Shown here: piece by piece, positions 30,790 through 47,107 of the stretch
Layout: every line of letters begins with the position of its first letter
Position numbering within the stretch: the first letter of the stretch is position 1
Origin: Parcubacteria group bacterium GW2011_GWA2_47_21
GTDB taxonomy: Bacteria > Patescibacteriota > Minisyncoccia > Phycocordibacterales > DSPV01
Assembly (NCBI GenBank): GCA_001000545.1
Contig: LCOC01000005.1
Coordinates: forward strand, 10,013-74,012
DNA: 64,000 nt
Direction: 5' to 3'
The notes under the pieces: generated by a model
What the model was told of the DNA's origin: nothing
Database searches by the model: none
Seen by the model: the letters and a program-made list of their open reading frames with translations, nothing else
Translations under genes and position numbers: made by a program

Positions 30790-30900
30790 TGTCTCTGTGC
30801 AAACCTGCTTGCGCGCCGCCTGCCTGTGCGTGTCCTGCTTGCGCGCCGCGCGCAGGCAAGCCGCACGCAGACAGGCGCGCGGGCAAGCACACACAGGCAG
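30790..30900. repeat. GC-rich imperfect large palindrome with internal direct repeats between hisS and rpsU
   Basis: CCTGCTTGCGCGCCGC occurs twice 29 bp apart; region is largely self-complementary (CCTGCCTGTGCGTG...CAGACAGGCGCG...). Confidence 0.7.
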
Positions 30901-31024
30901 ATACTAACGCATACTTGCCCCGTAGTGAGCCGCGCTCTGCTAATGAGGCGAATGATACTAATGAAAAGTTCCTATCATTAACGCTGAATTTGCAGAGTAA
31001 AAAAACTCGTGTTAGTATCTCATT

Positions 31025-31279: not shown

Positions 31280-31287
31280 AACGGAAG

Positions 31288-31668
31288 ATGAATCACTTGT
31301 CTTTAACCAACCTGACTCGCAGCGAATTGCCTCGCCTACCTTTTAGAAAAATTACAGAAAAAATCCTCAGTAAGAAATACTCTTTGTCGGTGGTTTTTAC
31401 CGGCAATAAGCGCGCCGCGCGCTTAAACAAAAAATATCGCGGCAAAAACTACGCGCCGGATGTCTTGGCTTTTCCTTTGTCGGACAAGTCGGGAGAAATA
31501 TTTATCGCGCCGAAGGCCGCTTCGCGGCAAGCGGCGCTTTTTGGAGAGCCAACGGCAAAATACATCGGACGCCTGTTTATCCACGGTTTGCTTCATTTGA
31601 AAGGATACCGCCATGGTAGTAAAATGGAGCATGAAGAAAGAAAAATTTTGAGAAGGATTGATTCTTAA
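31288..31668 (+). CDS. ybeY: rRNA maturation RNase YbeY
   Basis: HGLLHLKGYRHGSKMEHEE (H-x3-H-x5-H zinc motif); follows rpsU as in many bacteria. Confidence 0.85.
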   Translation: MNHLSLTNLTRSELPRLPFRKITEKILSKKYSLSVVFTGNKRAARLNKKYRGKNYAPDVLAFPLSDKSGEIFIAPKAASRQAALFGEPTAKYIGRLFIHGLLHLKGYRHGSKMEHEERKILRRIDS

Positions 31669-31843
31669 TTCTCAATATTTGCCGAAGACATCTGAAAAGG
31701 GCGGCGAGATTTTTAGCGACGGAGCGAATCATAGGCGCGGGGTGAAGGTTGGCGTCAGAATGCTTTATTATTTTGACACTGTCATCTTTTGTCGTTTATT
31801 GGCGAATTTTTAACGGCGTTGATTTTTTAAATTTTTTACTATC

Positions 31844-33016: not shown

Positions 33017-33326
33017 AAATCGCCCGGGCATATGTTTTTCAACGCGCGACAAAACACCCCCCCAGCCGGGCGTTTTTTGTGCTCGCCTTGCCGCTTGCCC
33101 TGCCGCTTGCCAACTCCCGTTGGCAAGCGGCAGGATTCCCAAAAAAGACGCTGGGGTCAAATTTTTAAGAAACATTTGCTTGACTTGTCAACTCTTCCTT
33201 TTTTGAGCGGGTTTGTGTAGTATGCGACACTATAAAGCGGAGCGGATTCAAAACGGCGCTTCTGGCAAAAGCTCTCAAACGGTTTTTCATTTTTCGTTTG
33301 GCTTTTTAAATTTTACATAAATCATT

Positions 33327-34463
33327 ATGCCTCAAGTAAAACCCGAAGTTGAAGCGTTTGCGCGCATTAAAGTCATCGGGGTCGGCGGCTCGGGCAAGAA
33401 CGCCGTCAATCATATGCTCGGCGCCAAAGTCAAAGGCGTGGAATTCATCGTGGTCAATACCGACGCCCAAGACCTCCACAACGCGCAGGCGAGGAAGAAA
33501 ATCCACATCGGGAAAAATCTCACTCACGGGCTGGGGGCCGGCATGAATCCCGAAGTCGGCCGCAAAGCGGTTGAAGAAAATAAAGAAGAAATCCAAGAAG
33601 CCATCAAGGGCGCCGATATGGTGTTCGTGGCGGGAGGACTCGGTGGCGGCACTTACACCGGCGCGGCGCCGATGATCGCAAAAACCGCCAAGGAACTCGG
33701 CGCGCTCACTGTCGCCATCGCCACTAAGCCGTTTTTCTTTGAAGGCCAGCAAAGAATGAGAATTGCCGAAAGCGGGCTGGAAGAGCTTCGCCACTCGGTT
33801 GACGCCATCGTGGTCATTCCCAACGACCGCTTATTGGGAGTGGTGACCAAAGAGACCACCGCCAAGAACGCTTTCGCTATGTGCGATGAAGTGCTTAAGC
33901 AGGCGGTGGAAGGCATTTCCGACCTGATTACCATCCCGGGCATCATCAATGTTGATTTCGCCGATGTTAAAGCGGTTTTGGAAAATGCCGGCTCGGCTTT
34001 AATGGGCATCGGCATCGCCTCCGGCGAAAAAAGAGCCGAGGAAGCGGCCCGAGCGGCCATTAATTCCCCGCTTTTGGAGGTTTCAATCAGCGGCGCCAAA
34101 GGAGTCCTCTTCTCCATTGCCGGCGGCGACGACCTCACTATGTTTGAAATCCAAGATGCCGCCAAAGTCATTACCGAATCCATTGACCCTGACGCCAAAG
34201 TTATTTTTGGCACGGTCCGCGACGACAAACTCAAGAAAGGCGAAGTGAAAATTACGGTCATCGCTTCCGGTTTCCCCGAGCCGTCCACTCCCAGGAAAAC
34301 CTTATTTATGGCCGATTCGGAAGAGAAAAAAGGGAAAATTTTCAACGCAATGATGGCGCCGACCGCGGCCTCGGCCAACGAAACTAAAACGGACGGCAAG
34401 ACACTGCCTGAAGATGAAGACGAGTGGAGCGCCGTGCCGGCATTTCTAAGGAGGAAAAAGTAG
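33327..34463 (+). CDS. ftsZ: Cell division protein FtsZ
   Basis: Tubulin signature GGLGGGTYTGAAPMIAKTAKELGALTVAIATKPFFFEG and IKVIGVGGSGKNAVNHM. Confidence 0.95.
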   Translation: MPQVKPEVEAFARIKVIGVGGSGKNAVNHMLGAKVKGVEFIVVNTDAQDLHNAQARKKIHIGKNLTHGLGAGMNPEVGRKAVEENKEEIQEAIKGADMVFVAGGLGGGTYTGAAPMIAKTAKELGALTVAIATKPFFFEGQQRMRIAESGLEELRHSVDAIVVIPNDRLLGVVTKETTAKNAFAMCDEVLKQAVEGISDLITIPGIINVDFADVKAVLENAGSALMGIGIASGEKRAEEAARAAINSPLLEVSISGAKGVLFSIAGGDDLTMFEIQDAAKVITESIDPDAKVIFGTVRDDKLKKGEVKITVIASGFPEPSTPRKTLFMADSEEKKGKIFNAMMAPTAASANETKTDGKTLPEDEDEWSAVPAFLRRKK

Positions 34464-34600
34464 TTTAGTATTTTTCGCCTTTTTTAAATTCAAAGGAGGG
34501 TTTAAATTTTGGAATAAAAAAACTGCCCGCACGCAATGGTGTCGGGCTAGTTTAAGCTTTCATAGATTTTCACCTTTCTCTTTAGTGGGGATTGATTAGT

Positions 34601-35029
34601 TTAGTTGGGAATTTCAACGGCACTACCAGCGCTACGGAATGCTCTCTTGAGAAAACATTCTCTCTTTTCTGCAACGACTTGTGGCATCAAGTCGCGCACT
34701 TGATAGCACAGCCAGACAAGACGGTCTCCGCCTTGTTGTCCTTTGAAGCGGTGAGCAAGTTTTACTACCTCGCTCGCCAATTCGGGACTTTCACAGAGTA
34801 ATTTTCTCGCTGTATCCTTGAACTCACTGATTGATGAACAACTCTGGAGCAAAGTATAATGCTCCGTTCTATTTCCTTTACTCGCGACTTTTTTCCACAT
34901 AGCTTCGCGTTCGGCGAAACTATGAGCTTGGTCTGCAAGTGCCCGATCTCGTTCCTGTTGGTCAATCAGCCCAACTTTACACAATGCGTCTGCTAAGGAG
35001 TTAGCCATATTTTTATCACCAAGGTTCAA
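34601..35029 (-). CDS. Hypothetical protein in AT-richer segment
   Basis: 142-aa ORF with no motif I recognise; flanked by ~330-bp AT-rich non-coding DNA. Confidence 0.35.
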   Translation of the reverse strand: MNLGDKNMANSLADALCKVGLIDQQERDRALADQAHSFAEREAMWKKVASKGNRTEHYTLLQSCSSISEFKDTARKLLCESPELASEVVKLAHRFKGQQGGDRLVWLCYQVRDLMPQVVAEKRECFLKRAFRSAGSAVEIPN

Positions 35030-35357
35030 TTTCTAAGCTTGTTTTCTGGTACATACCAGGGCATTGCTTAGCCGCCAATAGGTTAGCATGGCTAATGATT
35101 TATGTCAATGGAGAAAAAATTTTGTGGATGAAGTGTCAAAATATGCCATTGTTTAACGATTTTTTCACCTACACCAACTTTCAACGATTGCTGTTTTTGT
35201 GTGTATGCCACAAAAATAAACGAAGGCATTAACAAGGTATTAACGAAGATATTTTTGCAAACAGCACAAACAGTAAATATCTGCCATAAATGTAATTTGC
35301 TAAATGGCGAAACTAAACATGAATCCTTCTTTGTAAAAGTGTGATAAACTATCGGTT

Positions 35358-36293
35358 ATGATTTACGATTTGGCCATCATCGGCGGGGGGCCGGCCGGCG
35401 TTGCGGCCGGCGTTTATGCTGCCAGAAAAAAACTCAAAACGATTTTTCTGACCATGGACTTTGGCGGCCAAAGCGTCGTTTCGCCCGACATTCAAAATTG
35501 GATTGGCACTATTTCCATTTCCGGCGAGGAATTGGCGAAAAACCTCAAGAATCATCTTTTGGCTTACGGCAAAGAAGTCGTGGCCGTGAAAGAAGGCCTT
35601 CGGGTTAAAAATGTAGAAAAGACCGAGGACGGCTTTGAAATCGCGCTTGATGACGGCGAGTCCTATCACGCAAAAATTGTCCTGATAACCACCGGTTCAA
35701 GCCGCCGGAAACTTTCTGTCCCGGGCGCCAAAGAATTTGAAAATAAAGGCATCACTTATTGCGCCACTTGCGACGGGCCGCTTTTCGCCGGCCAAGACGT
35801 CGCCGTCATCGGCGGGGGCAATGCCGCCTTTGAAACTGCCGTTCAGCTTTCCGCCTATTGTAAATCTGTAACACTACTCCAAAGAAGCGGGGGGTTCCGC
35901 GCCGACCCAGTCACGGCGGAGCGGGTTTTAGCTAAACCAAATGTTAAAGGCATTACCGGCACGGAAATCCTAGAAATCAAAGGCGGTAAATTCGTTTCTT
36001 CATTGCTCTTTAAGAAAACCGCTGCGGGAGAAATTACGGACCTGCCGGTAACCGGCATATTCGTTGAAATAGGCCTTGTGCCGGCCACCGGTTTCGTAAA
36101 AAATCTGCTCAAGTTAGACCCGTGGGGACATATAATCGTTGACCCGAAAACGCAAAGAACCTCATGCCCCGGTGTTTGGGCGGCTGGCGACTCCACCGAC
36201 GGACTATATCACCAAAATAACATCGCCGCCGGCGATGCCATTAAAGCGCTGGAAGATATTTATATGTTCCTTCACGCCGGTAAAACAAAGTAG
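35358..36293 (+). CDS. trxB: Thioredoxin-disulfide reductase
   Basis: FAD motif DLAIIGGGPAGVAAGVYAAR, redox-active CATCDG, NADPH motif VAVIGGGNAAFETA. Confidence 0.9.
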   Translation: MIYDLAIIGGGPAGVAAGVYAARKKLKTIFLTMDFGGQSVVSPDIQNWIGTISISGEELAKNLKNHLLAYGKEVVAVKEGLRVKNVEKTEDGFEIALDDGESYHAKIVLITTGSSRRKLSVPGAKEFENKGITYCATCDGPLFAGQDVAVIGGGNAAFETAVQLSAYCKSVTLLQRSGGFRADPVTAERVLAKPNVKGITGTEILEIKGGKFVSSLLFKKTAAGEITDLPVTGIFVEIGLVPATGFVKNLLKLDPWGHIIVDPKTQRTSCPGVWAAGDSTDGLYHQNNIAAGDAIKALEDIYMFLHAGKTK

Positions 36294-36491
36294 GCGTATC
36301 CTCCTCTGATTGACAATAACAATCAATGGAATACACTGGTAGTGGCAACAGTTCGCAGATTTCCGTCCCCAAAAAGCGTCTCTCGCATCTCCCAGTTACG
36401 TTTGAACGAACTCGATATGCAACACCCACAGCGAGCCACGCCTGACGCTTTGGTCTGCGTTCCTTCTTCGGAACTTTAGCCCGCCCTCGCA

Positions 36492-36839
36492 TTGATGTTG
36501 AGGGCGGGCTATCATTCTTCATATGAGGGTTTTTCAAGCGCAAGCGGCGGACACATTTTCTACCAGGGAGTGAAGAAACGCCAAAGGGGGCGACGCATTT
36601 TCCAAGACGACCTAGCGCCAAATACTCTTATCAGAATTATTCCATGGGACCGCTTCAGAGTGCTTTTCATAGATGATGACGGGAAGGAGAGGTTTCTTCA
36701 GCTAAACGCTCCCCTGCCGAAAGGCAACTGTTTTCGCACGGAGGCGGTTGGAGGGCAAATCCAACTTAAACCGATAGCGGACTTTGAAAGCGCGAGCAAC
36801 GAGGCCTTTGAAATGCCAGATGACTACAGACCGGCATAG
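36492..36839 (+). CDS. Hypothetical small protein
   Basis: 115-aa ORF followed by terminator-like hairpin AAGCCACC-TTT-GGGTGGCTT at ~36858-36878. Confidence 0.3.
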   Translation: MMLRAGYHSSYEGFSSASGGHIFYQGVKKRQRGRRIFQDDLAPNTLIRIIPWDRFRVLFIDDDGKERFLQLNAPLPKGNCFRTEAVGGQIQLKPIADFESASNEAFEMPDDYRPA

Positions 36840-36959
36840 CCAATCTTTTCGGCCGGCACAAGCCACCTTTGGGTGGCTTTCTCTTTGCGCACTTACTTAA
36901 AAAATGCGCTCGCGTGGTGGGGCTTCGATGCGGACGAGGCAAAGCAAAACTATTTTTGC

Positions 36960-37030
36960 GGGAGGAAAAGGATTTGCTTTGCCTCGGCTCTTTTTCCAAA
37001 ACCACGGGGATTTGGTATCCGCCGCGCCGG
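36960..37030. repeat. Inverted repeat, left copy (71 bp) flanking UDG-like/radical SAM cassette
   Basis: GGGAGGAAAAGGATTTGCTTTGCCTCGGCTCTTTTTCCAAAACCACGGGGATTTGGTATCCGCCGCGCCGG; exact reverse complement at 39184-39254. Confidence 0.9.
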
Positions 37031-37203
37031 TGTTGACGAAAAAACTGGAGATAGTTGGCGTAGATCGTGTGAGCGATTTTCGACACTTGGTTTTTTCTGC
37101 GACAATATCAAAATTATAAATTCCGATATATCGAGAAGATTCGTATGCTTCCCACTCTTCACGCGCGCTTCGCAAGCGATGTCCGTCCGCATCTCTTCCA
37201 TCT

Positions 37204-37686
37204 TCATGAGACAAGTCGTTCAATAACGGCTTTCACTGCTTGAACATATCGATTTTTTTCCTTTCGCTTGTACACCATGATGTACGAGGGATGTTGAATA
37301 GGCACATACCATTTCCCTCCATACTCAAAAGAGCGATATCTGTAAGACAATTTTGGCATCTGTAGTCCAATCTGACGAAGAACAAATGTTGCTGTCTTGT
37401 TACCAAGCAATAAGACAACGCGAGGATTAACTGTCTGAATCTCAACTTGTAGTTCAGGATAGCACAGCACACACTCTTCAGGTGTCGGATACCTCAACTT
37501 CCCCTTGGAATCCAATGGAGGAAACTTTACAAGGTTTGTTTTGTAAAAGCTTGCATGGCGGCATCGTGCCTCAATTTCTGCCACCAGCTTACCGGTGTTT
37601 GTGTCTATATGAAGAGGAGCGCAAATCTCGGCATTAATTGCCTTTTTCGCAGAAAGACCAACCCACATTACATTTGCGTTTTTCAT
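37204..37686 (-). CDS. Uracil-DNA glycosylase superfamily-like protein (family 4/5-like, non-canonical motif A)
   Basis: UDG-fold pattern: hydrophobic core VVLLLGNKTATFVL and C-terminal HPS motif (PIQHPSYI); N-terminal motif region VGLSAKKA instead of GEGPG. Confidence 0.45.
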   Translation of the reverse strand: MKNANVMWVGLSAKKAINAEICAPLHIDTNTGKLVAEIEARCRHASFYKTNLVKFPPLDSKGKLRYPTPEECVLCYPELQVEIQTVNPRVVLLLGNKTATFVLRQIGLQMPKLSYRYRSFEYGGKWYVPIQHPSYIMVYKRKEKNRYVQAVKAVIERLVS

Positions 37687-37749
37687 CGGTTTATTCCATT
37701 AGTTTCGGTAATGAATTTCCGAAGAATCTCATCGGACACTTCGGAAAAA

Positions 37750-38910
37750 TTACCACTCGTGAAATTGAAAGACGCTCGTCCTAAAGTTAACGCCATTTTT
37801 CACAGACGATTCTTTGAGTCCCGCCGCTAAATCGTAAGACATCCGCATATCATCAATGGTTTCAGTTTCAAAACCAAAAATGAAATACCCTTTTACATTT
37901 ATGCCGGCGAGGAATAATCTTTCGATGGTCCGTTTGATCAAATCCACATCCGAAGTTTTGTGAATCATTTTGAGTATGCGCGGAGATCCAGACTCAATAC
38001 CAATGAACACCTCCTTACAACCTGACCGCTTCAGTTCAAGTAATTGCGCATCACTCAATTTATAAAATGATAACACATGAGCCATGGCACGCCATGTTAC
38101 GGGAACATGCCCAAACATACGAACCGCACGCTCCACACTATCAGCATTCCTTAGGAATAAATCGTCAAGAACCCGCACCGAATCAACATTCGGGTACAGT
38201 TCGCATATCATCGCCACTTCATTTGCCACGCTTTGAGCATTTCTTTCTCTAATCGGTGTTTCCCTGTTCAGAGATCGAGCCGCTGAACAAAACGCGCAGT
38301 TATACATACACCCGCGACTGGTCACAATACTCACTTCGTTGAATCCTAACGTGTGTCGCAACGGCTGATTTACGAAGAATGACCTGTCTAAGGGAATATT
38401 GGAAATATCCTGAGGGAAATACGGTGAACTCACAGATACCGTAATAACCCGCTTATTACCTTTCTGACTAATGATATCAAGGGGCTTCCCCTGCACAATC
38501 GCGCTGACCACAAAATCCCCTTCTCCAATGACTATATCCACGGGACAAGAAGTATTCCAATGCAATATAGTTTTATAGAGATTCTTCGTAGCTAATCCAC
38601 CGATGATGAACCGTACTCCACCCTTAATTGATTCAACTATTTCACGAACCAAGTGCAAATTAGTTGTGAATACATTCAGAGCCACATAGCACGGACGCTT
38701 TTGACGAATAACCGCCAAAAGAATTTCAAGAGAAATGTTTGCCTCAACAGTATCCAACAGTTCAACGGTTATTCCATTACTCCAGAGATCCGTAGCTATA
38801 TACCCTAATCCAAGTGGTGGTAAAGAATCTTCATCGTATCCGTCCACCTTATCTCGAAATAAGGGTGAGTTGATAATCAAAACATCGAGCGATTGACTTT
38901 CTTCTTGCAT
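37750..38910 (-). CDS. Cobalamin-binding-domain (class B) radical SAM protein
   Basis: N-terminal B12-binding-like Rossmann segment (LPPLGLGYIATDL...VRFIIGGLATKN...DIVIGEGD) followed by radical SAM CxxxCxxC (GCMYNCAFCSA). Confidence 0.7.
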   Translation of the reverse strand: MQEESQSLDVLIINSPLFRDKVDGYDEDSLPPLGLGYIATDLWSNGITVELLDTVEANISLEILLAVIRQKRPCYVALNVFTTNLHLVREIVESIKGGVRFIIGGLATKNLYKTILHWNTSCPVDIVIGEGDFVVSAIVQGKPLDIISQKGNKRVITVSVSSPYFPQDISNIPLDRSFFVNQPLRHTLGFNEVSIVTSRGCMYNCAFCSAARSLNRETPIRERNAQSVANEVAMICELYPNVDSVRVLDDLFLRNADSVERAVRMFGHVPVTWRAMAHVLSFYKLSDAQLLELKRSGCKEVFIGIESGSPRILKMIHKTSDVDLIKRTIERLFLAGINVKGYFIFGFETETIDDMRMSYDLAAGLKESSVKNGVNFRTSVFQFHEW

Positions 38911-39183
38911 GACACTTTCCTCCTTTTTCTGTGTTGTGAGTGTTCTGGGTTTGCTGTACTGGCGGATAAACGCCGTCGCTTTTCTTCATTCACGAACGAG
39001 CCGTGAATGAGTCGATTTATCTTTCTTGAGCGAATGTTGAGTTGTCTTTTGATCCACCATGTTTTTATCTCCTTTCTTTTTTAGATTGTCAAAAAACAGC
39101 TTTGACTGATTGCTATTCTACATTAGTTTTTGATTTTGTGCAAGGCCGCCCGCCGAAAATCCGCCGCGCATTCCTCCCCACAC

Positions 39184-39254
39184 CCGGCGCGGCGGATACC
39201 AAATCCCCGTGGTTTTGGAAAAAGAGCCGAGGCAAAGCAAATCCTTTTCCTCCC
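39184..39254. repeat. Inverted repeat, right copy (71 bp)
   Basis: Reverse complement of 36960-37030; the two copies enclose 37031-39183. Confidence 0.9.
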
Positions 39255-39326
39255 TTTTGAAAATAGGTGCGAGCTTGGTACAATAGACACACCATAAGGA
39301 GATTAGGAGGAATTTTTCCTATTTCA

Positions 39327-39355
39327 CAATGGGCTTCCGCAATGGAAGCCCATTG
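39327..39355. repeat. Hairpin repeat element CAATGGGCTTCC-GCAAT-GGAAGCCCATTG, copy 1
   Basis: 31-bp identity (CACAATGGGCTTCCGCAATGGAAGCCCATTG) with 46290-46320. Confidence 0.9.
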
Positions 39356-39643
39356 AATTTCCGCAACGCCGCGCGCTTCGCGCGCGTGAAGTGTCAGGTT
39401 CAATCCGAAGATTTTTTGAGCGAACGATTTTTTGAGAGAAAGAGGGGCGAAGACATTTAATATAATGCTTGCCCCACGCCACCCGTGCGCGCATTATGAA
39501 AACTTTGCCGATTTTCAAATCGGCAACTCCATAAGATACGAGTTAAGTTCCTATAACTTCTTCACCTCGTTAGAAACGCTCTCAATACCGCAAAGATTTT
39601 ATTTTTCATTATTTCAATCAACCGGCGATTGGTGTCGGCTATT

Positions 39644-42637
39644 TTAGCCTTCATTATGTCTGTATAAATCTCCAAGTTTCAAAACGCTCCGATTCTCCCA
39701 CCAGCTTATATCCTTTTTCCCAACTTCCAGATTTTCTAGAATGAATAAATAACGCCATTCCTCTTTTGCCGGATCTGCCTCGGTTAGCATCGAGACATAT
39801 TTCTCGCCCCGCTCTTTTTTCGCCTTGTCTCGCTCGTCCATTCGTCCCTTTACTTCAATAATATAATTTACTACTCTATCGCCTTCATTTGCGCGTGCGA
39901 TAAAATCTGGAAAGTAATTTACATAAAACCCTTGCCAAAGATACTCAAAGTTATATCCCACGCCCTGCTGATGATTATAAATCCAGCCACTCACGTCCTC
40001 ACACGCATCTAATAATTGTGCGGCGCGCAACTCGTCATTATTAGCCATGCATTGCTTATCAAAACCGGCTCGCTCGGGATTCTCAAGGGCATTTTCAAAA
40101 ATCACCTGGTATGGCTCAATAACCCTGCTTTCTAAAATATCAAATTTGTCCGTCGCTGGTTTCTCATTTGAGCGCAAGCCGTTGATAAATTTGACGAGTT
40201 CCTGCTTCACCGCCGCCATCACATCGTCATTGAATATATTTTTCTTCACGATCTTGTCTGTCTTTTCATCCACCGAATCCAACCGCAAGGACGCACCGGC
40301 AGGAAGATCAAATACCCGCTTTTCCAAAAATCGCTTCACCACATCGAGTACGCGCAATTTATCGGAATGAGACAAACGCAATTCATTTAAAATCGGCCGG
40401 ACATAGCCAGAAATAAGTAACCGATCCAGCCCGTAATAATTTGCTGATTGTTCAAACTCAAATTCAAGCCCCTTTTCAATATCTTTCTCAAACTGTGTTT
40501 TGATCTTTAGTTTATCGGCAAATTCAATCCATTCAAGTCGCTTTGCCAACTCCGGCAAATCTGCCTCGCGGAAATTATCATGCCAAGTTTTTACATGCTC
40601 AATCAGCCCTAAAAATTTAATCATTCTCACATTACGAGCCTTCCGCACATCCGCATCAGAGAGCGGATTTACAACTGTGTATACTGGCGGTTCTTTCTCT
40701 CCTGCGTCCACTTCATCAACAATGTCGTCTATCTCGTCAATAATCGCTTGAAATGAGGGATGCTGGATAACATAGAGATTTTCAGGTTTGGAATATACTG
40801 CCCCCTCATCATCCATTTCCGGTTGATGCATTTTGCGAAGCCCTCGGCCCAATGTCTGCTCCGCTAGGGTCCGTGAATCACACGGCCGAAGTGGCACAAT
40901 GGTTTTCACATTCCGCACATCCCAGCCCTCTTTCAGCATCAAAACCGCGACAATCACGTTAAATGGATTCTCCACTACTTCGCCCTTCAATTGTGGATCC
41001 TCAATATATTCCTTATCTATCAAATGCACGAGCTTACGCACTTTGTCCCACTCCTTGTCGTTTTTAAGTTCCTTTTCGCCGATGTGTATTTGCACAACAG
41101 TTGTTTTGTCATCTTTTACAAACAGTGTTTGCTTGGCTTCGTCATCATAAAATCCTTTCACCGGCAGATTGTCTTGTGATAAGTCTTTGCCCTCATCGTC
41201 AATCTCCCGATACACTAAATAATTATATATCTGATTGGCTTCTTTTCTATCGTTACAGATAATAAAAAGAATTTGTTTGCGCTTATCGCCTTCTTGGTCA
41301 AAAACTTTTTGATTTTCCTGCCAGCGTTTGATACCTGTACGGAGCAGATTTTCGTACTTCTCCCAAGCGCATAGCTTTTCGTTATTGATAATACCGCGTG
41401 CCTCATCGCCCTCGTACACTTTCACCTTTTCCAGTTTTGGGAGTTTTATTATGCCGTCCCGTTTCGCATCGCCGAGCGAATACAAATCAACTGTGTGTTT
41501 GAATAAATCCATCCAACGGTAACGAATCTCCTCATTATCGTTCTTTTTCGTTTTATGAGACCCCTTTTCTTCAAAAAGCGTGGCCGATAAATCAATCTGT
41601 AAGCCAACTTCGCAAAGCTTATCTATATTTCTTATAGAGCGAATCCAACCCAATTCTTCGGCCGCCTGCTTTTCTTTCACGCCAATTTCCTTCAGGTTCT
41701 TTGTTTTCTTTTCATACTCCTTGTGCTTTTCTTCGTCGTGAACATGATGTGCCTCGTCGTTGATGACGAGAACATTCGATGAATTCTTAAAACTATCAAC
41801 CAATGCTCGCTTTTGGTTCTCTAACTTTTTGGGCATTGCCGTTTCAAAAATGCCAAGTTCCTTCGATAATCCCACGCTTTCTTCTTCACCTTCGTTTCCC
41901 GATTCCCTATAGAGCTTGTGGATGTTCGTTACTATAAGCGCACCTTCATCCGGCGCAAGCTCGCTTGGCACGGTTTCCGGCGAATACACTTTGAGATTCC
42001 AATATCGCTCAAGTTCTTTTGGAACTACCGGATCACCGTGGAAAATATCCGGCCTTTCATCTGACGGCGAAAAGTCCTCCAAAAGACGGTCAAGCACAAA
42101 CAAGTTCGGTGCAATCAAAATACTATGCTTGCCAATGTTTAAATGTTTTTCACCTTCAATCACTGCGTTTAAGTAACTCCATGCAATTACCAAGCCCATG
42201 ATTTTAGTCTTGCCGGAACCTGTTGCAAGTTGCGCGCCAAGCTTGGTCCAATCGTCGCGTTGGGGCACAATTTCAAAATCGATCACTTTGGAGATGTCCT
42301 CACGCCGACGAACCCCACAAACTTCGTAAAGATAAATAAAAGTTTCAAGTGCACGCCTCTGATGCGGCCAGTATTTGAAGCGATAACTTTTCCCGTCCCT
42401 TCCTTTTAACTCATGCGGAAATGGACGAAACCAATGTCTCAAAAGTAAATCCGTTGTTTCTGAAATATTCTTTTCAAACGGCATAACTGGCTTGTATCTT
42501 GGTTGCTCTTTCGGATAGGGCAGTTTAGCGCTTTGCAAAGCAAACCTTCGCCAAGCATCTACACGCTCACGGAGTTTTTGGATGACGATTTTCTGCGCTG
42601 GCAGAGTTTTCTCAGTTTTAGATGGTTTTGTAGGCAT
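39644..42637 (-). CDS. res: Type III restriction-modification system restriction subunit (Res), SF2 helicase + nuclease
   Basis: 997 aa; Walker A LATGSGKTKIM, DEAH box VINDEAHHV, helicase motifs; last gene of C-mod-...-res operon. Confidence 0.8.
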   Translation of the reverse strand: MPTKPSKTEKTLPAQKIVIQKLRERVDAWRRFALQSAKLPYPKEQPRYKPVMPFEKNISETTDLLLRHWFRPFPHELKGRDGKSYRFKYWPHQRRALETFIYLYEVCGVRRREDISKVIDFEIVPQRDDWTKLGAQLATGSGKTKIMGLVIAWSYLNAVIEGEKHLNIGKHSILIAPNLFVLDRLLEDFSPSDERPDIFHGDPVVPKELERYWNLKVYSPETVPSELAPDEGALIVTNIHKLYRESGNEGEEESVGLSKELGIFETAMPKKLENQKRALVDSFKNSSNVLVINDEAHHVHDEEKHKEYEKKTKNLKEIGVKEKQAAEELGWIRSIRNIDKLCEVGLQIDLSATLFEEKGSHKTKKNDNEEIRYRWMDLFKHTVDLYSLGDAKRDGIIKLPKLEKVKVYEGDEARGIINNEKLCAWEKYENLLRTGIKRWQENQKVFDQEGDKRKQILFIICNDRKEANQIYNYLVYREIDDEGKDLSQDNLPVKGFYDDEAKQTLFVKDDKTTVVQIHIGEKELKNDKEWDKVRKLVHLIDKEYIEDPQLKGEVVENPFNVIVAVLMLKEGWDVRNVKTIVPLRPCDSRTLAEQTLGRGLRKMHQPEMDDEGAVYSKPENLYVIQHPSFQAIIDEIDDIVDEVDAGEKEPPVYTVVNPLSDADVRKARNVRMIKFLGLIEHVKTWHDNFREADLPELAKRLEWIEFADKLKIKTQFEKDIEKGLEFEFEQSANYYGLDRLLISGYVRPILNELRLSHSDKLRVLDVVKRFLEKRVFDLPAGASLRLDSVDEKTDKIVKKNIFNDDVMAAVKQELVKFINGLRSNEKPATDKFDILESRVIEPYQVIFENALENPERAGFDKQCMANNDELRAAQLLDACEDVSGWIYNHQQGVGYNFEYLWQGFYVNYFPDFIARANEGDRVVNYIIEVKGRMDERDKAKKERGEKYVSMLTEADPAKEEWRYLFILENLEVGKKDISWWENRSVLKLGDLYRHNEG

Positions 42638-42708
42638 TGTGGATAACTATTGATTTTTAATAAGGGCTTGCTACAATACAGATGATCGTAAGATCACGGA
42701 TTTTAGAG

Positions 42709-43485
42709 CTAAGGGGCCCCAGAAATGGGGTCCTTTGTGCGTTTACCGTTATACTCCTTTTTCCAACAAATAAAATCTCTGATATTAAAAATATCAAATA
42801 TCCCCAAACCGCTTGTTTTGAGTTCGTTTAATTCCCTAGAGATTCGGCCGGCGGTTGCGAATAAAACAACCTTTTTGCCCACTTTAAGCAACCTTTCTAA
42901 GGGATCGGCGAAATCACTATCTCCGCTCCATAGTATAAAAGTTTCGGCGCTGTTTCGCTCACAATCAAGAAGCATATCAACTCCGATTTCAACATCAAAA
43001 TTACATTTCATATCCTCAATAAAATACTCCCCTTTTTTATTCATATCCTTGAAACGCTCATTCAAATATTCAATGGTCGCAATTTCATATTTCTTTAAAA
43101 GCGCCCGGCGAATAAACTGACTAACCAATACCGTTGAATCAGGCAATATACTGGAAACATCAATGGAAAAATTCATAATTTTTACCGGCTTTGTCCGAAG
43201 AATGTATTTGCAGTTCTCTGCTTCTGTTTTTTCTTTCTCTGATCTTTCATTTCCAGCCAAATAACCATTATAAAAATTAACTGCTTCAACTGTATCAAAA
43301 GAACCCAGAAATTGTTTTAATCTTTTAAGTTCAATATGCCAACCAAGTTTTTCACTCCACGGGCGCACGTTCGCATAATCAATATAGACACGAGTTTTTG
43401 CGCTAAAAATACTATCGAGTTGGCTAATAATTTCTTGCTGGTCCTTGGCAATTTTTTCAATCCTTTCTGTTTTTGGTGTGAACAT
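42709..43485 (-). CDS. NYN-domain (LabA-like, PIN-related) nuclease-family protein
   Basis: NYN blocks VYIDYANV, DVEIGVDML, LWSGDSDFADPL. Confidence 0.65.
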   Translation of the reverse strand: MFTPKTERIEKIAKDQQEIISQLDSIFSAKTRVYIDYANVRPWSEKLGWHIELKRLKQFLGSFDTVEAVNFYNGYLAGNERSEKEKTEAENCKYILRTKPVKIMNFSIDVSSILPDSTVLVSQFIRRALLKKYEIATIEYLNERFKDMNKKGEYFIEDMKCNFDVEIGVDMLLDCERNSAETFILWSGDSDFADPLERLLKVGKKVVLFATAGRISRELNELKTSGLGIFDIFNIRDFICWKKEYNGKRTKDPISGAP

Positions 43486-43497
43486 ATGGGTAGGTAA

Positions 43498-43710
43498 TTA
43501 GCTTATTTTCTGGTATCGATAACTATATCGAATATTGTCGTTAAGGAATTGCCCCGGCGATGAGGCCTGAAAAAATTGCCGATATAAATGATCCGGCACA
43601 TTAAAATACTGATATATATCGCCCGAAGTAAACTCCACCTCTAAAGTACCCAACTGCCGATCGTAGCCAATTGAGCGAATATTTGAGGACGATACTGATA
43701 CTCTATGCAT
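43498..43710 (-). CDS. KTSC-domain protein
   Basis: 70 aa; IRSIGYDRQLGTLEVEFTSGDIYQYFNVPDHLYRQFFQASSPGQFLNDNIRYSYRYQKI matches KTSC domain pattern. Confidence 0.6.
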   Translation of the reverse strand: MHRVSVSSSNIRSIGYDRQLGTLEVEFTSGDIYQYFNVPDHLYRQFFQASSPGQFLNDNIRYSYRYQKIS

Positions 43711-43712
43711 AG

Positions 43713-45800
43713 TTATTTTATCACGACTTTCGTCATCACAATCCCGTCGTTTCCGAAAATGTCTACGACCTTGACGGCAATGGTATATTCGCCGGATTTT
43801 TCGTAAGTATGGAAGGCCTTAAAAATCAAATCCTCAACCACTTTTTTGCCTTTTCGCTTGCGGAAACTCTGCCACTCATTTTCAAAAATAGGCCCATGTC
43901 CGTCTTCTTCATTCTTCAAATTTTCGTAATTCCAATCTACCGCCCAGAAATCCACAAAGCTCTGCCAGCTTTTTTCTTTTTCCAGCCACTTTTTGAGCTC
44001 ATCCCTTCGTTCCGGCTTCTGGCTTTCAAGAAAACTCTCCACATCCACCTCAAGCCCAGAAAGTTCAATGCTGGCCTCTTTGCCATCGACAACTTTGTGA
44101 ACCTTTACCGCAAGTGGCGCGAAAAAAGCAATATTGGGCATATCACTCACTTTCTCTGGACTCTTAACGCCTTGTTTAATGAGCTCCAAGCGTTTTTTCA
44201 CTTCTTCAATGGCGCTTGCCGGAATCATGCGTACAAAAACCTGCACGCCAAATTCTTCTTTCGCCTTTTCAACTGCCTGATTAAGGTGCGCGGTAAAATC
44301 CGCCGAAAGCACATAACACTTTTTAAAATCGGTGTCTTTGACTTCTTTGGCAATCGCTTGGATTTGCTCGGAAACTATCGGCTGGGAAAGCGGACCAACA
44401 TGAATCCACGCGCCTCTTTTCTTGCCGTGTAGTAATTTTGAATATGGCGTGTACTCTCCGCCAAAAAGTTCAATAATTGCTTGCCGATAAGCATCGGCTT
44501 GATTCCCAACCTGAATCGGGTCCCATTTCACGCCGCGTTGATAATAACCCATATTCTCAACCGTAAACGGACGGACTTTATAAACCCCCGCATTCTTTTC
44601 ACTTTTTTGCTTGCCGTTTAGCTCAATCAATCTTTTTCGTGCAGTATGAACAGCAAATTTTGAGTTATCAATCCCAATCCATGTGTAATTTAAACCGTCT
44701 GTCATTTGCTCAGTAGCTTTACAAGTTGTACCAGAGCCCATGAAAGAGTCCAAAATCACACCATTTTTAGGACAAGACGTTTCAATGATTCTCAATAATA
44801 GCTCAATTGGTTTTTGAGTAGGGTACCCTGTACGCTCAAGAGCTTTTGGATGCTCTTTATTGATTAACCAGTAGTCTCTTAGTGGGTTACCTTCTGGATC
44901 TTTGTAAATGACACGAGCGAATTTATTACTTTTAATTAATGCTTTTATATTTTCCTTATTTTCACTTCCCTTATAAACGATTAATTGTTTCTCACCATTT
45001 TTAAGTAAGTTGGTGGTATATCCTCTGTCAAGCGTTAGTTGTCTTTTGTCATCAATTTCTCTAAGTGATCGAAAATAATAATCATCGGTTTTGCTATATC
45101 GTAGTATGACATCATGGTCTTTTTGAAAATCGTTAGATGGAGCTGGCCACTTATCATAACACCAGACCACTTCGTTTCTAAAGTTTTGATATTCAAAAAT
45201 TTCATCCATCAATACTTTTACATAGTGAGATGTGTGCCAATCTAAATGCACATAAATTGAACCTGTAGGGGCGAGAAGCTCTTTCATTAAAAGCAACCGC
45301 TCGCGCATCATTTGGAGAAAACTATCCAACCCATTTTTCCAGGTGTCTTTGTAGGCAATCGTTTCTATAATCGTCGGCTCTTTTACTGACATCACGCCCT
45401 CCTCCTCATCCACCTCAATATCAATAGAATTTTCTGCCACAAAATCGTTCTGTACCATAAACGGCGGATCTATGTAGATAAGGTCAATTTTATTGCGGTA
45501 TCTATGTTCGCCAGAGATGGAATCTTTTTCGTCTAAAAGCGTCTTGAGCGCAACTAAATTATCGTTTGTCCAAATAAGCCGATTTTTAGGAAAATCCGCT
45601 GATTTAATAATTTTACCGGTCCCAATTTGTCCTTCGTGAAAAAATCTAAGGGTTTCGCCCTTCTTTTCTTCTTCGTTTGATTTATGCGGATAAACAATTT
45701 CCACTACTTGCGTAGGCACGGCTTCCGCAAGCGTCTTTTTGTCCATGCCGACATAGGCGAGCTTTGGCTTCTTTGGTTTTAGTTCAATTTCTTTTTTCAT
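43713..45800 (-). CDS. mod: Type III restriction-modification system methyltransferase subunit (Mod), beta-class N6-adenine MTase
   Basis: Mod hallmark WTNDNLVALKTL, motif IV DPPF (LIYIDPPF) before motif I FMGSGTT, TGYPTQKP. Confidence 0.85.
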   Translation of the reverse strand: MKKEIELKPKKPKLAYVGMDKKTLAEAVPTQVVEIVYPHKSNEEEKKGETLRFFHEGQIGTGKIIKSADFPKNRLIWTNDNLVALKTLLDEKDSISGEHRYRNKIDLIYIDPPFMVQNDFVAENSIDIEVDEEEGVMSVKEPTIIETIAYKDTWKNGLDSFLQMMRERLLLMKELLAPTGSIYVHLDWHTSHYVKVLMDEIFEYQNFRNEVVWCYDKWPAPSNDFQKDHDVILRYSKTDDYYFRSLREIDDKRQLTLDRGYTTNLLKNGEKQLIVYKGSENKENIKALIKSNKFARVIYKDPEGNPLRDYWLINKEHPKALERTGYPTQKPIELLLRIIETSCPKNGVILDSFMGSGTTCKATEQMTDGLNYTWIGIDNSKFAVHTARKRLIELNGKQKSEKNAGVYKVRPFTVENMGYYQRGVKWDPIQVGNQADAYRQAIIELFGGEYTPYSKLLHGKKRGAWIHVGPLSQPIVSEQIQAIAKEVKDTDFKKCYVLSADFTAHLNQAVEKAKEEFGVQVFVRMIPASAIEEVKKRLELIKQGVKSPEKVSDMPNIAFFAPLAVKVHKVVDGKEASIELSGLEVDVESFLESQKPERRDELKKWLEKEKSWQSFVDFWAVDWNYENLKNEEDGHGPIFENEWQSFRKRKGKKVVEDLIFKAFHTYEKSGEYTIAVKVVDIFGNDGIVMTKVVIK

Positions 45801-45801
45801 A

Positions 45802-46005
45802 TTATTTCAAAAGCTCATCGCTTGAAACACCAAGAGCTTTTGCCAGTTTCGTAATAGTTGAAAGTGTAGGATTCGTCTTTCCGTTTTCTATGTTGCTTAC
45901 AAACCCTTTATCCACGGCAAGTATCCGGCCAATCTCACCTTGGGATATGCCCTTCGCGGTTCTAATGCATTTTAGATTTTTGCCTAGTTTCGCAGATTCG
46001 TTCAT
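45802..46005 (-). CDS. XRE-family HTH regulator, controller (C-protein)-like, immediately upstream of mod
   Basis: 67 aa, HTH ISQGEIGRILAVDKGFVSNIENGKTNPTLSTITKLAKALGV; stop 2 bp before mod start codon. Confidence 0.6.
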   Translation of the reverse strand: MNESAKLGKNLKCIRTAKGISQGEIGRILAVDKGFVSNIENGKTNPTLSTITKLAKALGVSSDELLK

Positions 46006-46063
46006 TATTCATAGTATATCCTGTTGTTGTATTCTACACTATCCGTTGTGGTATACTATAACT

Positions 46064-46291
46064 ATGCCTAATTACTTTCTCTACGCTCGCAAAAGCACCG
46101 ATGTTGAAGACAAGCAAGTCCGGTCTATTGACGACCAACTTACTGTCTTGCGAGCGTTGGCGAAAGAGCAAAATTTCTCCATCACCCGAGAGTTCATAAA
46201 GAGGCAATCCGCGAAAATGCCCGGACACCCCGTCTTTGATGAAATGCTCGCCCTGATTGAGAAAGGCGAAGCGCGCGGCGGTCCACAAACA
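46064..46291 (+). pseudogene. Serine recombinase (resolvase/invertase-type) N-terminal catalytic-domain fragment, interrupted after ~75 aa by the hairpin repeat
   Basis: MPNYFLYARKSTDVEDKQVRSIDDQLTVLRALAKEQNFSITREFIKRQSAKMPGHPVFDEMLALIEKGEA matches Y-x-R-x-S-T...Q...L serine recombinase N-terminus; similarity ends where palindrome 46290-46320 begins. Confidence 0.6.
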
Positions 46292-46320
46292 CAATGGGCT
46301 TCCGCAATGGAAGCCCATTG
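46292..46320. repeat. Hairpin repeat element, copy 2
   Basis: Identical 31-bp core to 39325-39355. Confidence 0.9.
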
Positions 46321-46549
46321 TTTGGCTGGTAAAAAATCTTTCAGTTGGATTATGGTGGGCGGTATAGGGCTCGACCCTTACAGGGTCAGTACACCTTTCC
46401 CATTTTCTCGCGATAAGAATCGCTCGAAAATATGGGAGAAGGTCTTCAAATCCTCTCTCGCAACCAAAATCTTTTGCCCATCTAAATATATCAAAAAACT
46501 TGTTTGTTACAACTCAAACCAATTTTTTCAAAAAGTCATTTTCAAAAAC

Positions 46550-46636
46550 GGAAGGGGTGGGATTCGAACCCACGTGGGGCTTGCGCCCCCAGCCGATTTC
46601 GAGTCGGCGCCGTTATGACCGCTTCGGTACCCTTCC
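46550..46636 (-). tRNA. tRNA-Ser (anticodon CGA), class II
   Basis: Manual fold of reverse complement: acceptor GGAAGGG/CCCUUCC, anticodon stem GCCGA/UCGGC loop CUCGAAA, variable stem-loop GGGGGC-GCAA-GCCCC, T-arm GUGGG-UUCGAAU-CCCAC; 3' end faces the R-M island. Confidence 0.75.
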
Positions 46637-46700
46637 AACTGGTAGCTTTAGACCCCTGCCCGCCGAAGTCTCGGTGTAGGCGGGACTCAGCCACCCTTCC
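46637..46700 (-). other. tRNA-like 5' fragment (GGAAGGGUGGCUGAGU...) directly upstream of tRNA-Ser, not foldable into a complete tRNA
   Basis: First 16 nt resemble acceptor+D-arm start of a class II tRNA with the same acceptor 5' strand as tRNA-Ser; remainder forms an unrelated GC hairpin; no matching 3' acceptor strand. Confidence 0.5.
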
Positions 46701-46794
46701 CATAGAACGATAGCAATTTTTTGAATTTTTTTCAAAAAATGCTATTGTATGTCTGCCGTTTTTAGTTTTTCGCTTTTCGTTTTTAATTTACCGC

Positions 46795-46866
46795 GGCCCT
46801 ATCGTCTAACGGTTAGGACACAGGCTTTTCAAGCCTGGAATCGGGGTTCGATTCCCCGTGGGGTCA
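46795..46866 (+). tRNA. tRNA-Glu (anticodon UUC)
   Basis: Manual fold: D-arm GUCU-AACGGUUA-GGAC, anticodon stem CAGGC/GCCUG loop UUUUCAA, T-arm CGGGG-UUCGAUU-CCCCG; acceptor has two G-U pairs. Confidence 0.65.
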
Positions 46867-46926
46867 AAGTTTTTGAGCATGGCGAGAAAACTTTGAGCCC
46901 AAGCAAGCAAACTGCTTGGCTTGCGT

Positions 46927-47037
46927 CGGGGAATCGAACGGCGGAGTATGTCGCGAGTTTCGAGCGACGACGAGCCGGTGCCCAGACAAATTTTTGCGAC
47001 GGCAAAAATTTAGTCGCGGGCGATTCCCCGTGGGTCA
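46927..47037. repeat. Partial tRNA-Glu T-arm/3'-end-like copies downstream of tRNA-Glu (one inverted ~46927-46947, one direct ~47021-47037)
   Basis: CGATTCCCCGTGGGTCA (direct) vs tRNA 3' end TCGATTCCCCGTGGGGTCA; CGTCGGGGAATCGAACGG is an inverted GTTCGATTCCCC-like segment. Confidence 0.55.
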
Positions 47038-47107
47038 CCGAAAGAAACTTTGCCGAGATTTCGTAGTTGTAATATTTGTTGTATAGCCGGTGTTTTCTTC
47101 AATATAA

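Follow-up and report, generated by a model that had tools for sequence, protein, structure and literature searches.

We examined a 64,000-nucleotide (nt) stretch of DNA from Parcubacteria group bacterium GW2011_GWA2_47_21 (contig LCOC01000005.1; hereafter the window, whose positions are used throughout), in which a run of genes with deviating composition lies between trxB and a small cluster of tRNA genes. From left to right, the TrxB gene (35358-36293, plus strand) and a short open reading frame (ORF) are followed by a two-gene cassette encoding a radical S-adenosylmethionine (rSAM) protein and a protein of the uracil-DNA glycosylase (UDG) superfamily, set between inverted-repeat arms; by a type III restriction-modification (R-M) operon; by a gene for a helix-turn-helix (HTH) regulator; and by the remains of a large serine recombinase (LSR) gene, beyond which lie tRNA-Ser(cga) (46548-46637, minus strand) and tRNA-Glu(ttc) (46795-46866, plus strand), both found by ARAGORN and Rfam. 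With considerable confidence, we read the DNA from about 36.9 to 46.5 kb as a composite genomic island inserted between trxB and what is, in full, a tRNA-Val(GAC)/Ser(CGA)/Glu(UUC) cluster. A preliminary description, made from the letters of the window, had proposed an integrated island that later decayed or was rearranged, the product of more than one event. That proposal holds: gene order is not conserved across 80 related loci, composition deviates from the flanks, and the similarity to recombinases is upheld. The locus itself, a defence island at a tRNA hot spot, is a decayed composite island of an ordinary kind; it is the recombinase family that is unusual.

The interval in relatives and in sibling assemblies

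Relatives of the locus were gathered in a TrxB-based scan that kept one genome per species and returned 80 Paceibacteria/Parcubacteria loci, with TrxB identities of at most 66%. FtsZ and TrxB are neighbours in all 80, and TsaD and the next core gene follow downstream at varying distance. In most of these loci a trio of tRNA-Val(gac), tRNA-Ser(cga) and tRNA-Glu(ttc), of which the window's tRNA-Ser and tRNA-Glu are members, lies between TrxB and TsaD; tRNA-Val(gac) was present there in 29 of the 32 relatives scanned for tRNAs. Locus L096 illustrates the empty arrangement, with the end of trxB at 10909 followed by tRNA-Val (minus) at 10948, tRNA-Ser (minus) at 11029, tRNA-Glu (plus) at 11291 and TsaD at 11639. 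The distance from the end of trxB to the minus-strand tRNA-Val is 39 nt in L096 and 12 nt in L020, and the tRNA order and orientation of both match those of the window's sibling assemblies (Val minus, Ser minus and Glu plus in contig L006), minus about 10 kb. The TrxB-TsaD interval, 11.6 kb long here, spans 0.7-2.7 kb in about a dozen relatives and 7-10 kb, with other content, in others. No homologue of the UDG-like, rSAM or restriction (Res) protein was found at the locus in the 80 relatives (E < 1e-5), and the only match to the methyltransferase (Mod) among them was a weak one in L075, at 23% identity. Because empty sites exist in relatives and the content of the interval varies, we regard the interval as a hot spot and the window's content as an insertion 3' of tRNA-Val(GAC). 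The earlier expectation that trxB would lie directly beside the tRNA cluster in relatives was borne out, except that the adjoining gene is tRNA-Val and not tRNA-Ser. The difference in composition from the flanking core was likewise confirmed: at third codon positions the island genes have a GC content of 0.34-0.45 (mean 0.40), and the window's remaining long ORFs one of 0.53 +/- 0.075 (Mann-Whitney test, P = 2e-4).

Eleven contigs from Rifle groundwater metagenomes, retrieved by exact-protein look-up and 99.7-100% identical to the window, served as sibling assemblies. Four segments present in all sibling contigs that cover the respective points are absent from the window, which is otherwise collinear with the siblings, without gaps of this kind, over 25358-37033 and 39255-46467. 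The first is 100 nt long, falls after 37030 and comprises the inner part of the left inverted-repeat arm of the cassette; the second, of 107 nt at about 37765, cuts the rSAM protein from 447 to 386 amino acids (aa). The third, of 86 nt after 39254, is the outer part of the right arm and includes the hairpin CCCCACCAC...GTGGTGGGG. The fourth, of 113 nt at 46464/46465, corresponds to an entire minus-strand tRNA-Val(gac) as called by ARAGORN. The likely target and anchor of the island is this tRNA-Val(GAC), which occurs in all siblings spanning the position, and not the tRNA-Ser that had first been named; tRNA-Ser is nonetheless intact, and the island does adjoin a tRNA gene as described. A 5' tRNA-Ser-like fragment had also been placed at 46637-46700. 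It is not convincing, as this segment has only GGAAGGGT (8 nt) in common with tRNA-Ser and fell below threshold in both local alignment and Rfam searches.

The four gaps are probably artefacts of assembly or curation in the public metagenome-assembled genome (MAG). Both the 386-aa rSAM protein (KKU70487.1) and a 184-aa 'Recombinase' (KKU70492.1) appear in one NCBI record only, that of MAG GW2011_GWA2_47_21, and the long forms of the two are found in every ENA/JGI assembly that we fetched from Rifle groundwater samples. Four real deletions in the strain, recording an ongoing decay of the island through a truncated rSAM gene, shortened arms and the loss of tRNA-Val, would be consistent with the clustering of the gaps inside the island of a window that is elsewhere collinear with its siblings, and such decay would suit a locus whose recombinase is dead. 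We nevertheless consider real deletions unlikely, given the confinement of the shortened rSAM protein and the 184-aa recombinase ORF to a single record, flanks that are 99.9-100% identical to the siblings, and the unusual step of losing a tRNA-Val(gac) that nearly all scanned relatives keep at this locus.

Several observations concern the surroundings of the island. Between trxB and the cassette, orf115 (36492-36839, plus strand; 115 aa) is an unassigned, lineage-specific ORF that has no match in Pfam, NCBIfam or PADLOC and no homologue among the 80 relatives; it is predicted as a gene in the sibling contigs too, is followed on its 3' side by a terminator-like hairpin (36860-36879), and probably lies outside the island. 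The tRNA trio is permuted in order and orientation among Paceibacteria (L019-L098), occurring as Val-Ser-Glu+, Val-Glu-Ser+, Ser-Glu+Val+ and Glu-Ser+Val+, which suggests repeated local inversions. On one MAG contig (CAXRCZ010000007.1), two identical regions running from FtsZ-TrxB to TsaD (L091 and L092) stand in opposite orientation about 70 kb apart, reflecting either a large inverted duplication or a mis-assembly.

The recombinase gene and its tail

The recombinase gene at the right end of the island (46064-46357, plus strand) is internally deleted, as seen from Pfam, tblastn and an alignment of its tail. The Pfam Resolvase profile matches its N-terminal part at 46064-46270 (E = 1.3e-6; 29 bits, where the cut-off is 23.3; homologues reach 4e-30). 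The remnant covers profile positions 2-63 of 145, with the catalytic Ser (in YARKST) among them, and has lost the remainder of the domain. When a 511-aa intact homologue was compared with the window by tblastn, its residues 5-73 aligned at 46073-46279 (68% identity, E = 3e-25), its residues 440-511 at 46142-46387 (E = 5e-6), and its residues 454-501 at 39433-39290 on the minus strand (E = 0.005). These matches identify the part of the ORF after 'GEARG' as the recombinase's own C-terminal tail, and place a second, inverted tail beyond the R-M operon. The N-terminal 72 aa are thus joined to the gene's own 3' tail at 46266-46280 (GCGAAGCGCGCGGCG; the window reads AAAGGCGAAGCGCGCGGCG across the joint), and the tail continues through a hairpin at 46292-46320 and a spacer to the motif ATGGTG at 46352-46357. 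In the intact recombinase gene of L122 the 9-nt sequence GCGAAGCGC occurs at codons 69 and 477, and deletion of about 400 codons (~1.2 kb) between these repeats accounts for the fusion of codon 72 to the tail. A domain search of intact relatives (L014, L122 and L142) returned Resolvase, Recombinase and Zn_ribbon_recom domains; the Recombinase and zinc beta-ribbon domains are absent from the window, where tblastn finds residues 5-73 and 440-511 only. The recombinase in the window is dead, by internal deletion. The preliminary description was right about the similarity to Resolvase and wrong in having the gene broken at the hairpin, since the joint is found at 46266-46280 and is followed in the ORF by about 40 aa of C-terminal homology. 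The intact homologues whose search it had called for exist, as genes of 508-513 aa with the full LSR domain set.

Searching with the 72-aa fragment yielded 158 matches, and the 120 listed were all short, from bacteria of the candidate phyla radiation (CPR), and 53-82% identical. We considered a family of truly short (57-125 aa) resolvase-like proteins and rejected it: the short matches that we inspected turned out to be full-length genes interrupted by an in-frame TGA (L014) or a frameshift (L012), and intact genes of 508-513 aa exist. In the Kuenenbacteria contig L014 the TGA falls at the conserved Trp of GILAWHPDRLARN (GILA*HPDRLARN, 706-714) in what is otherwise a 511-aa protein, and the gene is found on 17 contigs; it could be a pseudogene or reflect low-level readthrough or recoding. 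Two further short matches (P0069 and P0002) likewise stop just before that conserved Trp.

The tail comprises the last ~190 nt of the recombinase ORF and carries two GC-rich hairpins, namely hairpin 1 (CGCGCGC-GAA-GCGCGCG) and the 29-nt hairpin 2, and a 32-nt spacer. In the window it appears twice. The right copy ends the deleted gene and fits the consensus only from GAAGCGCGCGGCG onward, with the recombinase N-terminus upstream; the left copy (39295-39449, minus strand) fits over its full length, aligns with 15 other tails and has no recombinase body, consisting of the 32-nt spacer, hairpin 2 (39327-39355) and hairpin 1 (39370-39386). A scan of a metagenome collection for the hairpin stem, allowing any 5-nt loop, found 39 contigs from Rifle and Hainich groundwater and other sites, and in all 39 the hairpin sits in the same conserved module, whose full form is ...AAAATCTTCGGATTGAACCTGACACTTCACGCGCGCGAAGCGCGCGGCGTTGCGGAAAAA-hairpin-TTTGGAAAATAAAATTCCTCTTAATCTCCTTATGGTG. 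The upstream part of the module (hairpin 1 and the C-terminal coding sequence) is absent from L113, L121 and L132, and in more distant family members (L014, L022, L057 and L073) the same place is taken by one or two hairpins that differ in sequence. An intact recombinase precedes the tail in L112, L122/L124 and L142, and tails without a recombinase body occur in L111, L114/L119/L127, L130 and L147. Two contigs, L120 and L137, share the layout of the window, with an outward-pointing recombinase at one end and, at the other, an inverted solo tail joined to the partner sequence P' described below, which makes the pair of inverted tails a family trait and not an accident of this locus. Such a pair is more readily explained by the terminal inverted repeats of a transposon-like element, or by an invertible segment, than by the textbook product of attP x attB recombination.

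Hairpin 2 had first been noticed as a 31-nt palindromic sequence on both sides of the R-M operon (39325-39355 and 46290-46320; none expected by chance), and had been taken for a boundary at which the recombinase gene was broken; under that mechanism the copies would be att-type scars or an inserted hairpin element, one of which cut the gene and left a bare N-terminal fragment. The two copies do exist; their identity in direct orientation and their position flanking the operon fit that mechanism, as does the similarity to recombinases stopping some 10-20 nt short of the right copy. We judge it very improbable. What follows the joint is the C-terminal tail that intact recombinases natively have, together with its hairpin; on the left stands an entire inverted tail instead of a half-site; and the hairpin holds the same position in all 39 contigs, in the tails of intact genes in some and in solo tails in others. 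The direct identity itself arises from a flipped loop. In the recombinase sense the loop reads ATTGC in every full-tail copy, including the 14 common-loop copies from outside the window that we aligned, and GCAAT in the right window copy only; the window's 31-mers are identical as a direct repeat because this 5-nt loop is flipped. In a perfect palindrome that amounts to a minute inversion and needs no special meaning. On this comparison the 31-bp hairpin is a native part of inverted tails rather than a break or boundary scar. A 15-nt inverted match beside the hairpins, considered as a chance match, proved to be hairpin 1 of the tail. An integrase split by its own integration, as in SSV1, was also rejected: nothing recombinase-like follows 39355 on the plus strand, and tail sequence lies on both sides of both hairpins. 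When hairpins, inverted-repeat arms and tRNA fragments were compared with Rfam, only the two intact tRNAs were matched.

The DNA between the two tails is mostly R-M cargo. The operon, on the minus strand, consists of Mod (43713-45800, 695 aa; Pfam N6_N4_Mtase PF01555, E = 2e-41; PADLOC MTase_III, E = 2.5e-68), a 70-aa KTSC-domain protein (43498-43710; Pfam, E = 2e-23), a 258-aa NYN-domain protein (42709-43485; Pfam, E = 9e-14) and the 997-aa Res subunit (39644-42637; Pfam ResIII, E = 7.5e-12; PADLOC REase_III), and the presence of type III R-M genes given in the preliminary description is thereby confirmed. As in EcoP15I-type systems, Mod and Res are co-oriented with mod upstream; the window differs in the NYN and KTSC genes lying between mod and res, and in a Res that matches the NCBIfam family of BPTD_3080 restriction endonucleases (E = 3e-70) at 237 bits, far below the cut-off of 800. 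The Cro/C1-type HTH regulator (45802-46005, minus strand; Pfam, PADLOC) is divergent from the recombinase gene. A copy 77% identical to it stands beside the intact recombinase of L022, and the divergent pairing is found in six further contigs (L057, L120, L122, L124, L128 and L137), a recurrence from which the HTH gene may belong to the recombinase module rather than to control of the R-M genes. Related elements carry comparable cargo, with Mod after the HTH gene in L124, Mod and Res beside the tail in L140, and NYN genes in L112 and L127.

Junctions with tRNA genes

Across the family, hairpin 2 lies 32 nt from the 3' end of a tRNA gene, and ARAGORN identified nine tRNA species in this position: Tyr(gta), Val(tac), Arg(tct), Ile(tat), Gly(tcc), Lys(ctt), Arg(cct), Leu(gag) and Arg(ccg). 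Past ATGGTG, the module runs into the reverse complement of the tRNA 3' end; in L130 and L147 it adjoins the 5' end of tRNA-Ile(gat) instead. The CCA end is encoded exactly at the junction in 13 of 13 unique tail-adjacent tRNA genes, compared with 28 of the 181 other tRNA genes of the fetched CPR loci (P = 3e-10, Fisher test), and the window's own tRNAs do not encode it. The pattern suggests that the crossover would fall within the tRNA 3' end, the element supplying CCA, trailer and hairpin. In most loci, T-rich runs (TTTTTCC, TGTTTCC or TATTTCC) follow the hairpin in the sense of the tRNA, and hairpin 2 may double as the terminator of the adjacent tRNA transcript; a simple terminator scan of the window did not call it.

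In the window itself, the right tail is joined to a degenerate tRNA-Val-like 3' end with an encoded CCA (46353-46385, minus strand; TACCGCCCACCA). Compared with the tRNA-Val of the siblings, TACCGCCCACCA is the acceptor end plus CCA, with a degenerate T-arm. The junction reads ACCA|TAATCCAA, as in L110 and L116, and is of the usual type for the tail family. An inverted tRNA-Val T-loop-like scar follows (46438-46464, plus strand), and the 113-nt tRNA-Val segment absent from the window would lie immediately to its right; tRNA-Val scars were found only within 120 nt of tRNA-Val, in both orientations. At the other end of the element, the solo tail meets a conserved non-tRNA partner, which we call P' (39257-39294, plus strand), ending in CACCA (39290-39294). 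After ATGGTG, this partner reads AGTGTTTATCGTTCAGCTCGCACTTATTTT in L109, L120, L137 and L134 and TGTCTATTGTACCAAGCTCGCACCTATTTT at the window's left copy. In the window P' contains a promoter-like site on the plus strand (TTGAAA-16-TACAAT with TG, 39257-39284), and in the unrelated genome L103 it is contiguous with the rSAM cassette. Near tRNA-Glu, the partial copies noted in the preliminary description were recovered as an inverted 13-mer of the T-arm (46927-46939, minus strand) and a direct copy of 17-18 nt of the 3' end (47021-47037, plus strand). The direct copy bounds a 171-nt unit after tRNA-Glu that occurs twice in tandem in the sibling contig L005 (158-517) and once in the window (46849-47037).

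The island falls into two parts, which would have been assembled by more than one event. The right part (39295-46385) is an LSR element of a family common in groundwater CPR bacteria, in which the recombinase gene reads toward a tRNA gene on the opposite strand and the tail is joined to the CCA end of that tRNA, presumably by integration there. Its cargo is the type III R-M operon with NYN and KTSC genes, together with the HTH gene divergent from the recombinase gene. An inverted solo tail ends the element on the trxB side, in the architecture also seen in unrelated contigs, and the recombinase was inactivated when the deletion between the two GCGAAGCGC repeats fused codon 72 to the tail. The left part (36907-39294) is the rSAM/UDG cassette, which meets the solo tail at a CACCA core and which, in this lineage, carries an inverted duplication of its hairpin-rich downstream region. 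Judged by sequence, the underlying reaction could be integration, transposition or inversion.

A family acting mainly as an invertase, with the inverted tails as ends of a segment that flips between tRNA-like sites, is a competing explanation that we weighed, and we consider it an unlikely one. It would explain the inverted arrangement of the tails, both of which end at a CACCA/GGTG core, the permuted Val/Ser/Glu trio among relatives, and the tails that also adjoin tRNA 5' ends in two contigs. In a Kuenenbacteria population, moreover, L013 and L014 carry the HTH-recombinase segment in opposite orientations beside one and the same tRNA-Thr/tRNA-Tyr flank, and a pseudo-tRNA lies at the segment's far side. 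However, all siblings spanning the 7-kb R-M segment (L001 and L003-L006) show it in one orientation, the window's recombinase is dead, and the presence of a near-identical tail at nine or more tRNA species in different genomes requires movement between sites.

Several observations weigh against an island built by integration of the LSR element at tRNA-Val. The tail-adjacent copy of tRNA-Val is degenerate, and a further 85 nt separate it from the intact tRNA-Val of the siblings, an arrangement not expected from one-step integration; a tRNA-Val-like repeat was looked for on the trxB side and none was found, leaving the island without bracketing direct tRNA-Val repeats. Two inverted tails are not what canonical attP x attB recombination leaves behind, and inversion or a transposon-like mechanism would suit them equally well. 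For the tail family we found neither an excised circle nor a pair of empty and occupied sites from near-identical genomes. The possible assembly errors of the window fall in exactly this region. Finally, the nearest available relatives are distant, at the TrxB identities given above, and with only such relatives the times and order of insertion cannot be fixed.

Like islands in tRNA genes (tDNA islands, as collected by Islander/TIGER and as seen in the tycheposons of Prochlorococcus), the locus has foreign DNA of deviant composition at a tRNA hot spot; it also shares with them defence genes as cargo, an integrase in fragments and partial tRNAs. In tycheposon islands, a fragmented integrase and partial tRNA copies are left by successive events (10.1101/2020.12.28.424599). 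tDNA islands, however, use tyrosine integrases almost exclusively, and an intact tDNA and a displaced direct 3' fragment bracket them; the enzyme here is a large serine recombinase, and the window lacks such a bracket, its element being marked at the ends by two inverted 190-nt tails. It is tyrosine integrases that classically target tRNA genes, and according to a 2015 statement serine integrases do not (PMC4383910).

Well-known large serine recombinases include the phiC31 and Bxb1 integrases, TnpX of Tn4451, TndX of Tn5397 and the Ccr proteins of SCCmec. Like these enzymes, the intact members of the present family combine Resolvase, Recombinase and zinc-ribbon domains, and the gene lies at the edge of the element beside its site. 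Known LSRs use one specific attB, whereas the partner in this family appears, from the junctions, to be the CCA end of many tRNA genes; the family differs also in an ORF that includes the conserved two-hairpin tail of ~190 nt, and in the inverted solo tail at the far end. A literature search for serine-recombinase islands in CPR bacteria, incomplete in coverage and no proof of novelty, found no description of the family.

These features leave room for a broader reading, to which we give somewhat less than even weight: that the family represents an undescribed class of CPR element, in which an LSR would attach the 190-nt tail at the CCA end of practically any tRNA gene, restoring the 3' end and providing a terminator. 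Such an element would be bounded by inverted tails in the manner of a transposon, could invert, and would carry R-M genes and other defence cargo from one reduced genome to another. It would then be a carrier of defence genes among genomes that otherwise show few mobile elements, and its inversion would explain the scrambled tRNA clusters of these CPR bacteria. If confirmed, the family would represent a new way for serine integrases to choose their targets and a path by which genes pass among CPR bacteria, and would offer a source of recombinases with a short, universal and structured target.

The rSAM/UDG cassette

The cassette on the trxB side of the element consists of a 160-aa UDG-superfamily protein (37204-37686, minus strand; Pfam UDG, E = 2e-14; below the NCBIfam cut-offs) and a B12-binding rSAM protein recognised by Pfam (37750-38910, minus strand). 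In the other assemblies the rSAM gene, at its full 447 codons, overlaps the start of the UDG-like gene by 4 nt. A 24-codon ORF and the rSAM gene are preceded, within the cassette, by a promoter-like site (TGCACA-16-TAGAAT, 39115-39142, minus strand). As described earlier, the pair is flanked by an inverted repeat, perfect over 71 nt (36960-37030 and 39184-39254); the left arm is hairpin-rich and extends over 36907-37033, and the right arm occupies 39184-39254. In the siblings the arms are 163 nt long, with 97% complementarity and about 127 nt identical. An ORF of 137, 159 or 85 aa downstream of the UDG-like gene was set aside as spurious, having no family match (in its 137-aa form) and no conservation elsewhere, and varying with the junction.

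An AlphaFold model of the UDG-like protein has a predicted local distance difference test score of 92, and Foldseek aligned it with family-4 UDG and UdgX at TM scores of 0.72-0.77 (0.75-0.77 to 4zbx and 1ui1). In alignments, the CPR forms lack the N-terminal CxxC, have KF in place of KC, and read VGLSAKK at motif A instead of GE(A/G)PG; motif B is HPSY, with H132-P133-S134 invariant in 30 homologues. The protein scores 45 bits against TIGR00758, where the cut-off is 125. The model thus points to a family 4/UdgX-like fold without the iron-sulphur cysteines. A further match of the model, at rank 33, is to the N-terminal domain of a family-A DNA polymerase from a phage, whose structure was determined with a modified template (9qhs_A, TM 0.74), which hints that a fold of this kind might handle modified bases. 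Coupling of a UDG-superfamily protein to a radical SAM enzyme is known from the UdgX-domain/radical SAM pairs of TIGR03914, to which the cassette is alike in this coupling and in a fold nearest family-4 UDG and UdgX. It differs from them in that the window's UDG-like protein reaches 29.7 bits where the cut-off is 190, its rSAM partner is of the B12-binding class, and the CPR UDG-like proteins lack the iron-sulphur cysteines and the GE.PG motif.

The pair is widespread. The 447-aa rSAM protein has 1793 homologues at E < 1e-10, many of them 82-90% identical and on contigs of 2.3-2.9 kb, and relatives of the UDG-like protein match these. Pairs 74-90% identical to that of the window lie in unrelated CPR core contexts (L101, L103 and L104) with the 4-nt overlap kept, and pairs about 50% identical occur in Chitinophagaceae (bacterium IBVUCB1 and related contigs; L106-L108, 7001-8975), where the neighbours are HTH, Peptidase_M78 (ImmA-type), DUF3368 and HEPN/RES toxin genes and a DUF5906 primase-like gene. 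From this distribution the pair appears to be a horizontally spreading two-gene module, separate from the recombinase element. PADLOC assigned the pair to no system, with a weak generic match for the rSAM protein (PDC-M51A, 51 bits) and none for the UDG-like protein, and a phage origin of the cassette was rejected, with two weak IMG/VR matches only. A literature search for the pair found nothing specific, its coverage being incomplete and no proof of novelty. The cassette presumably acts on DNA bases; speculatively, the UDG-like protein could act as a partner that flips out a DNA base and offers it to a B12-dependent enzyme of the radical methylase type, for self-modification or defence. Its recurrence across phyla and in defence-type neighbourhoods makes the pair an uncharacterised candidate module for DNA modification or defence.

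The long inverted repeat around the cassette is specific to this lineage. In other genomes, no long inverted repeat flanks it in L101 or L104, and L103 has a single arm, downstream of the UDG-like gene and followed by P' up to the CACC core, the sequence being collinear with the window to that point. Within the siblings the cassette is oriented as in the window in five contigs and flipped in L006, a 35-kb JGI contig in which the Res flank is joined to the UDG end; in L010 the arm is 48 nt longer. With about 127 identical nt in the arms, close to the k-mer size of assemblers, the flipped join of L006 could be a graph artefact. The long, near-perfect arms and the opposite orientation in L006, which is also that of the single-arm copy in L103, could be taken for a programmed, phase-variable switch, as in invertons or the inverted-repeat isomers of plastids, which the cassette resembles in being a segment between long, near-identical inverted repeats with a hint of both orientations. 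A switch of this kind seems rather improbable: the flipped junction is seen in one contig against five and may itself be artefactual, the promoter-like site of the operon is internal and would not be switched by inversion, no invertase gene is adjacent, and the cassette occurs without inverted repeats in other genomes. In the same way the cassette departs from known invertons and plastid-type isomers in lacking a site-specific invertase, in arms far longer (163 nt) than invertase sites, and in having no promoter that is switched. Inversion of the cassette, if it occurs, is probably a by-product of recombination between the arms.

Elsewhere in the window, three copies of a direct repeat of 84-161 nt (93-99% identity, 0.9-2.3 kb apart) lie at 12462-14942, in a low-GC stretch at 12-19 kb, and a palindromic element of 26-37 nt (CGCGTCAACCTGCCAGGTTGACGCG), resembling a dispersed hairpin, is present in three copies at 8217-8315 and 27903-27939.

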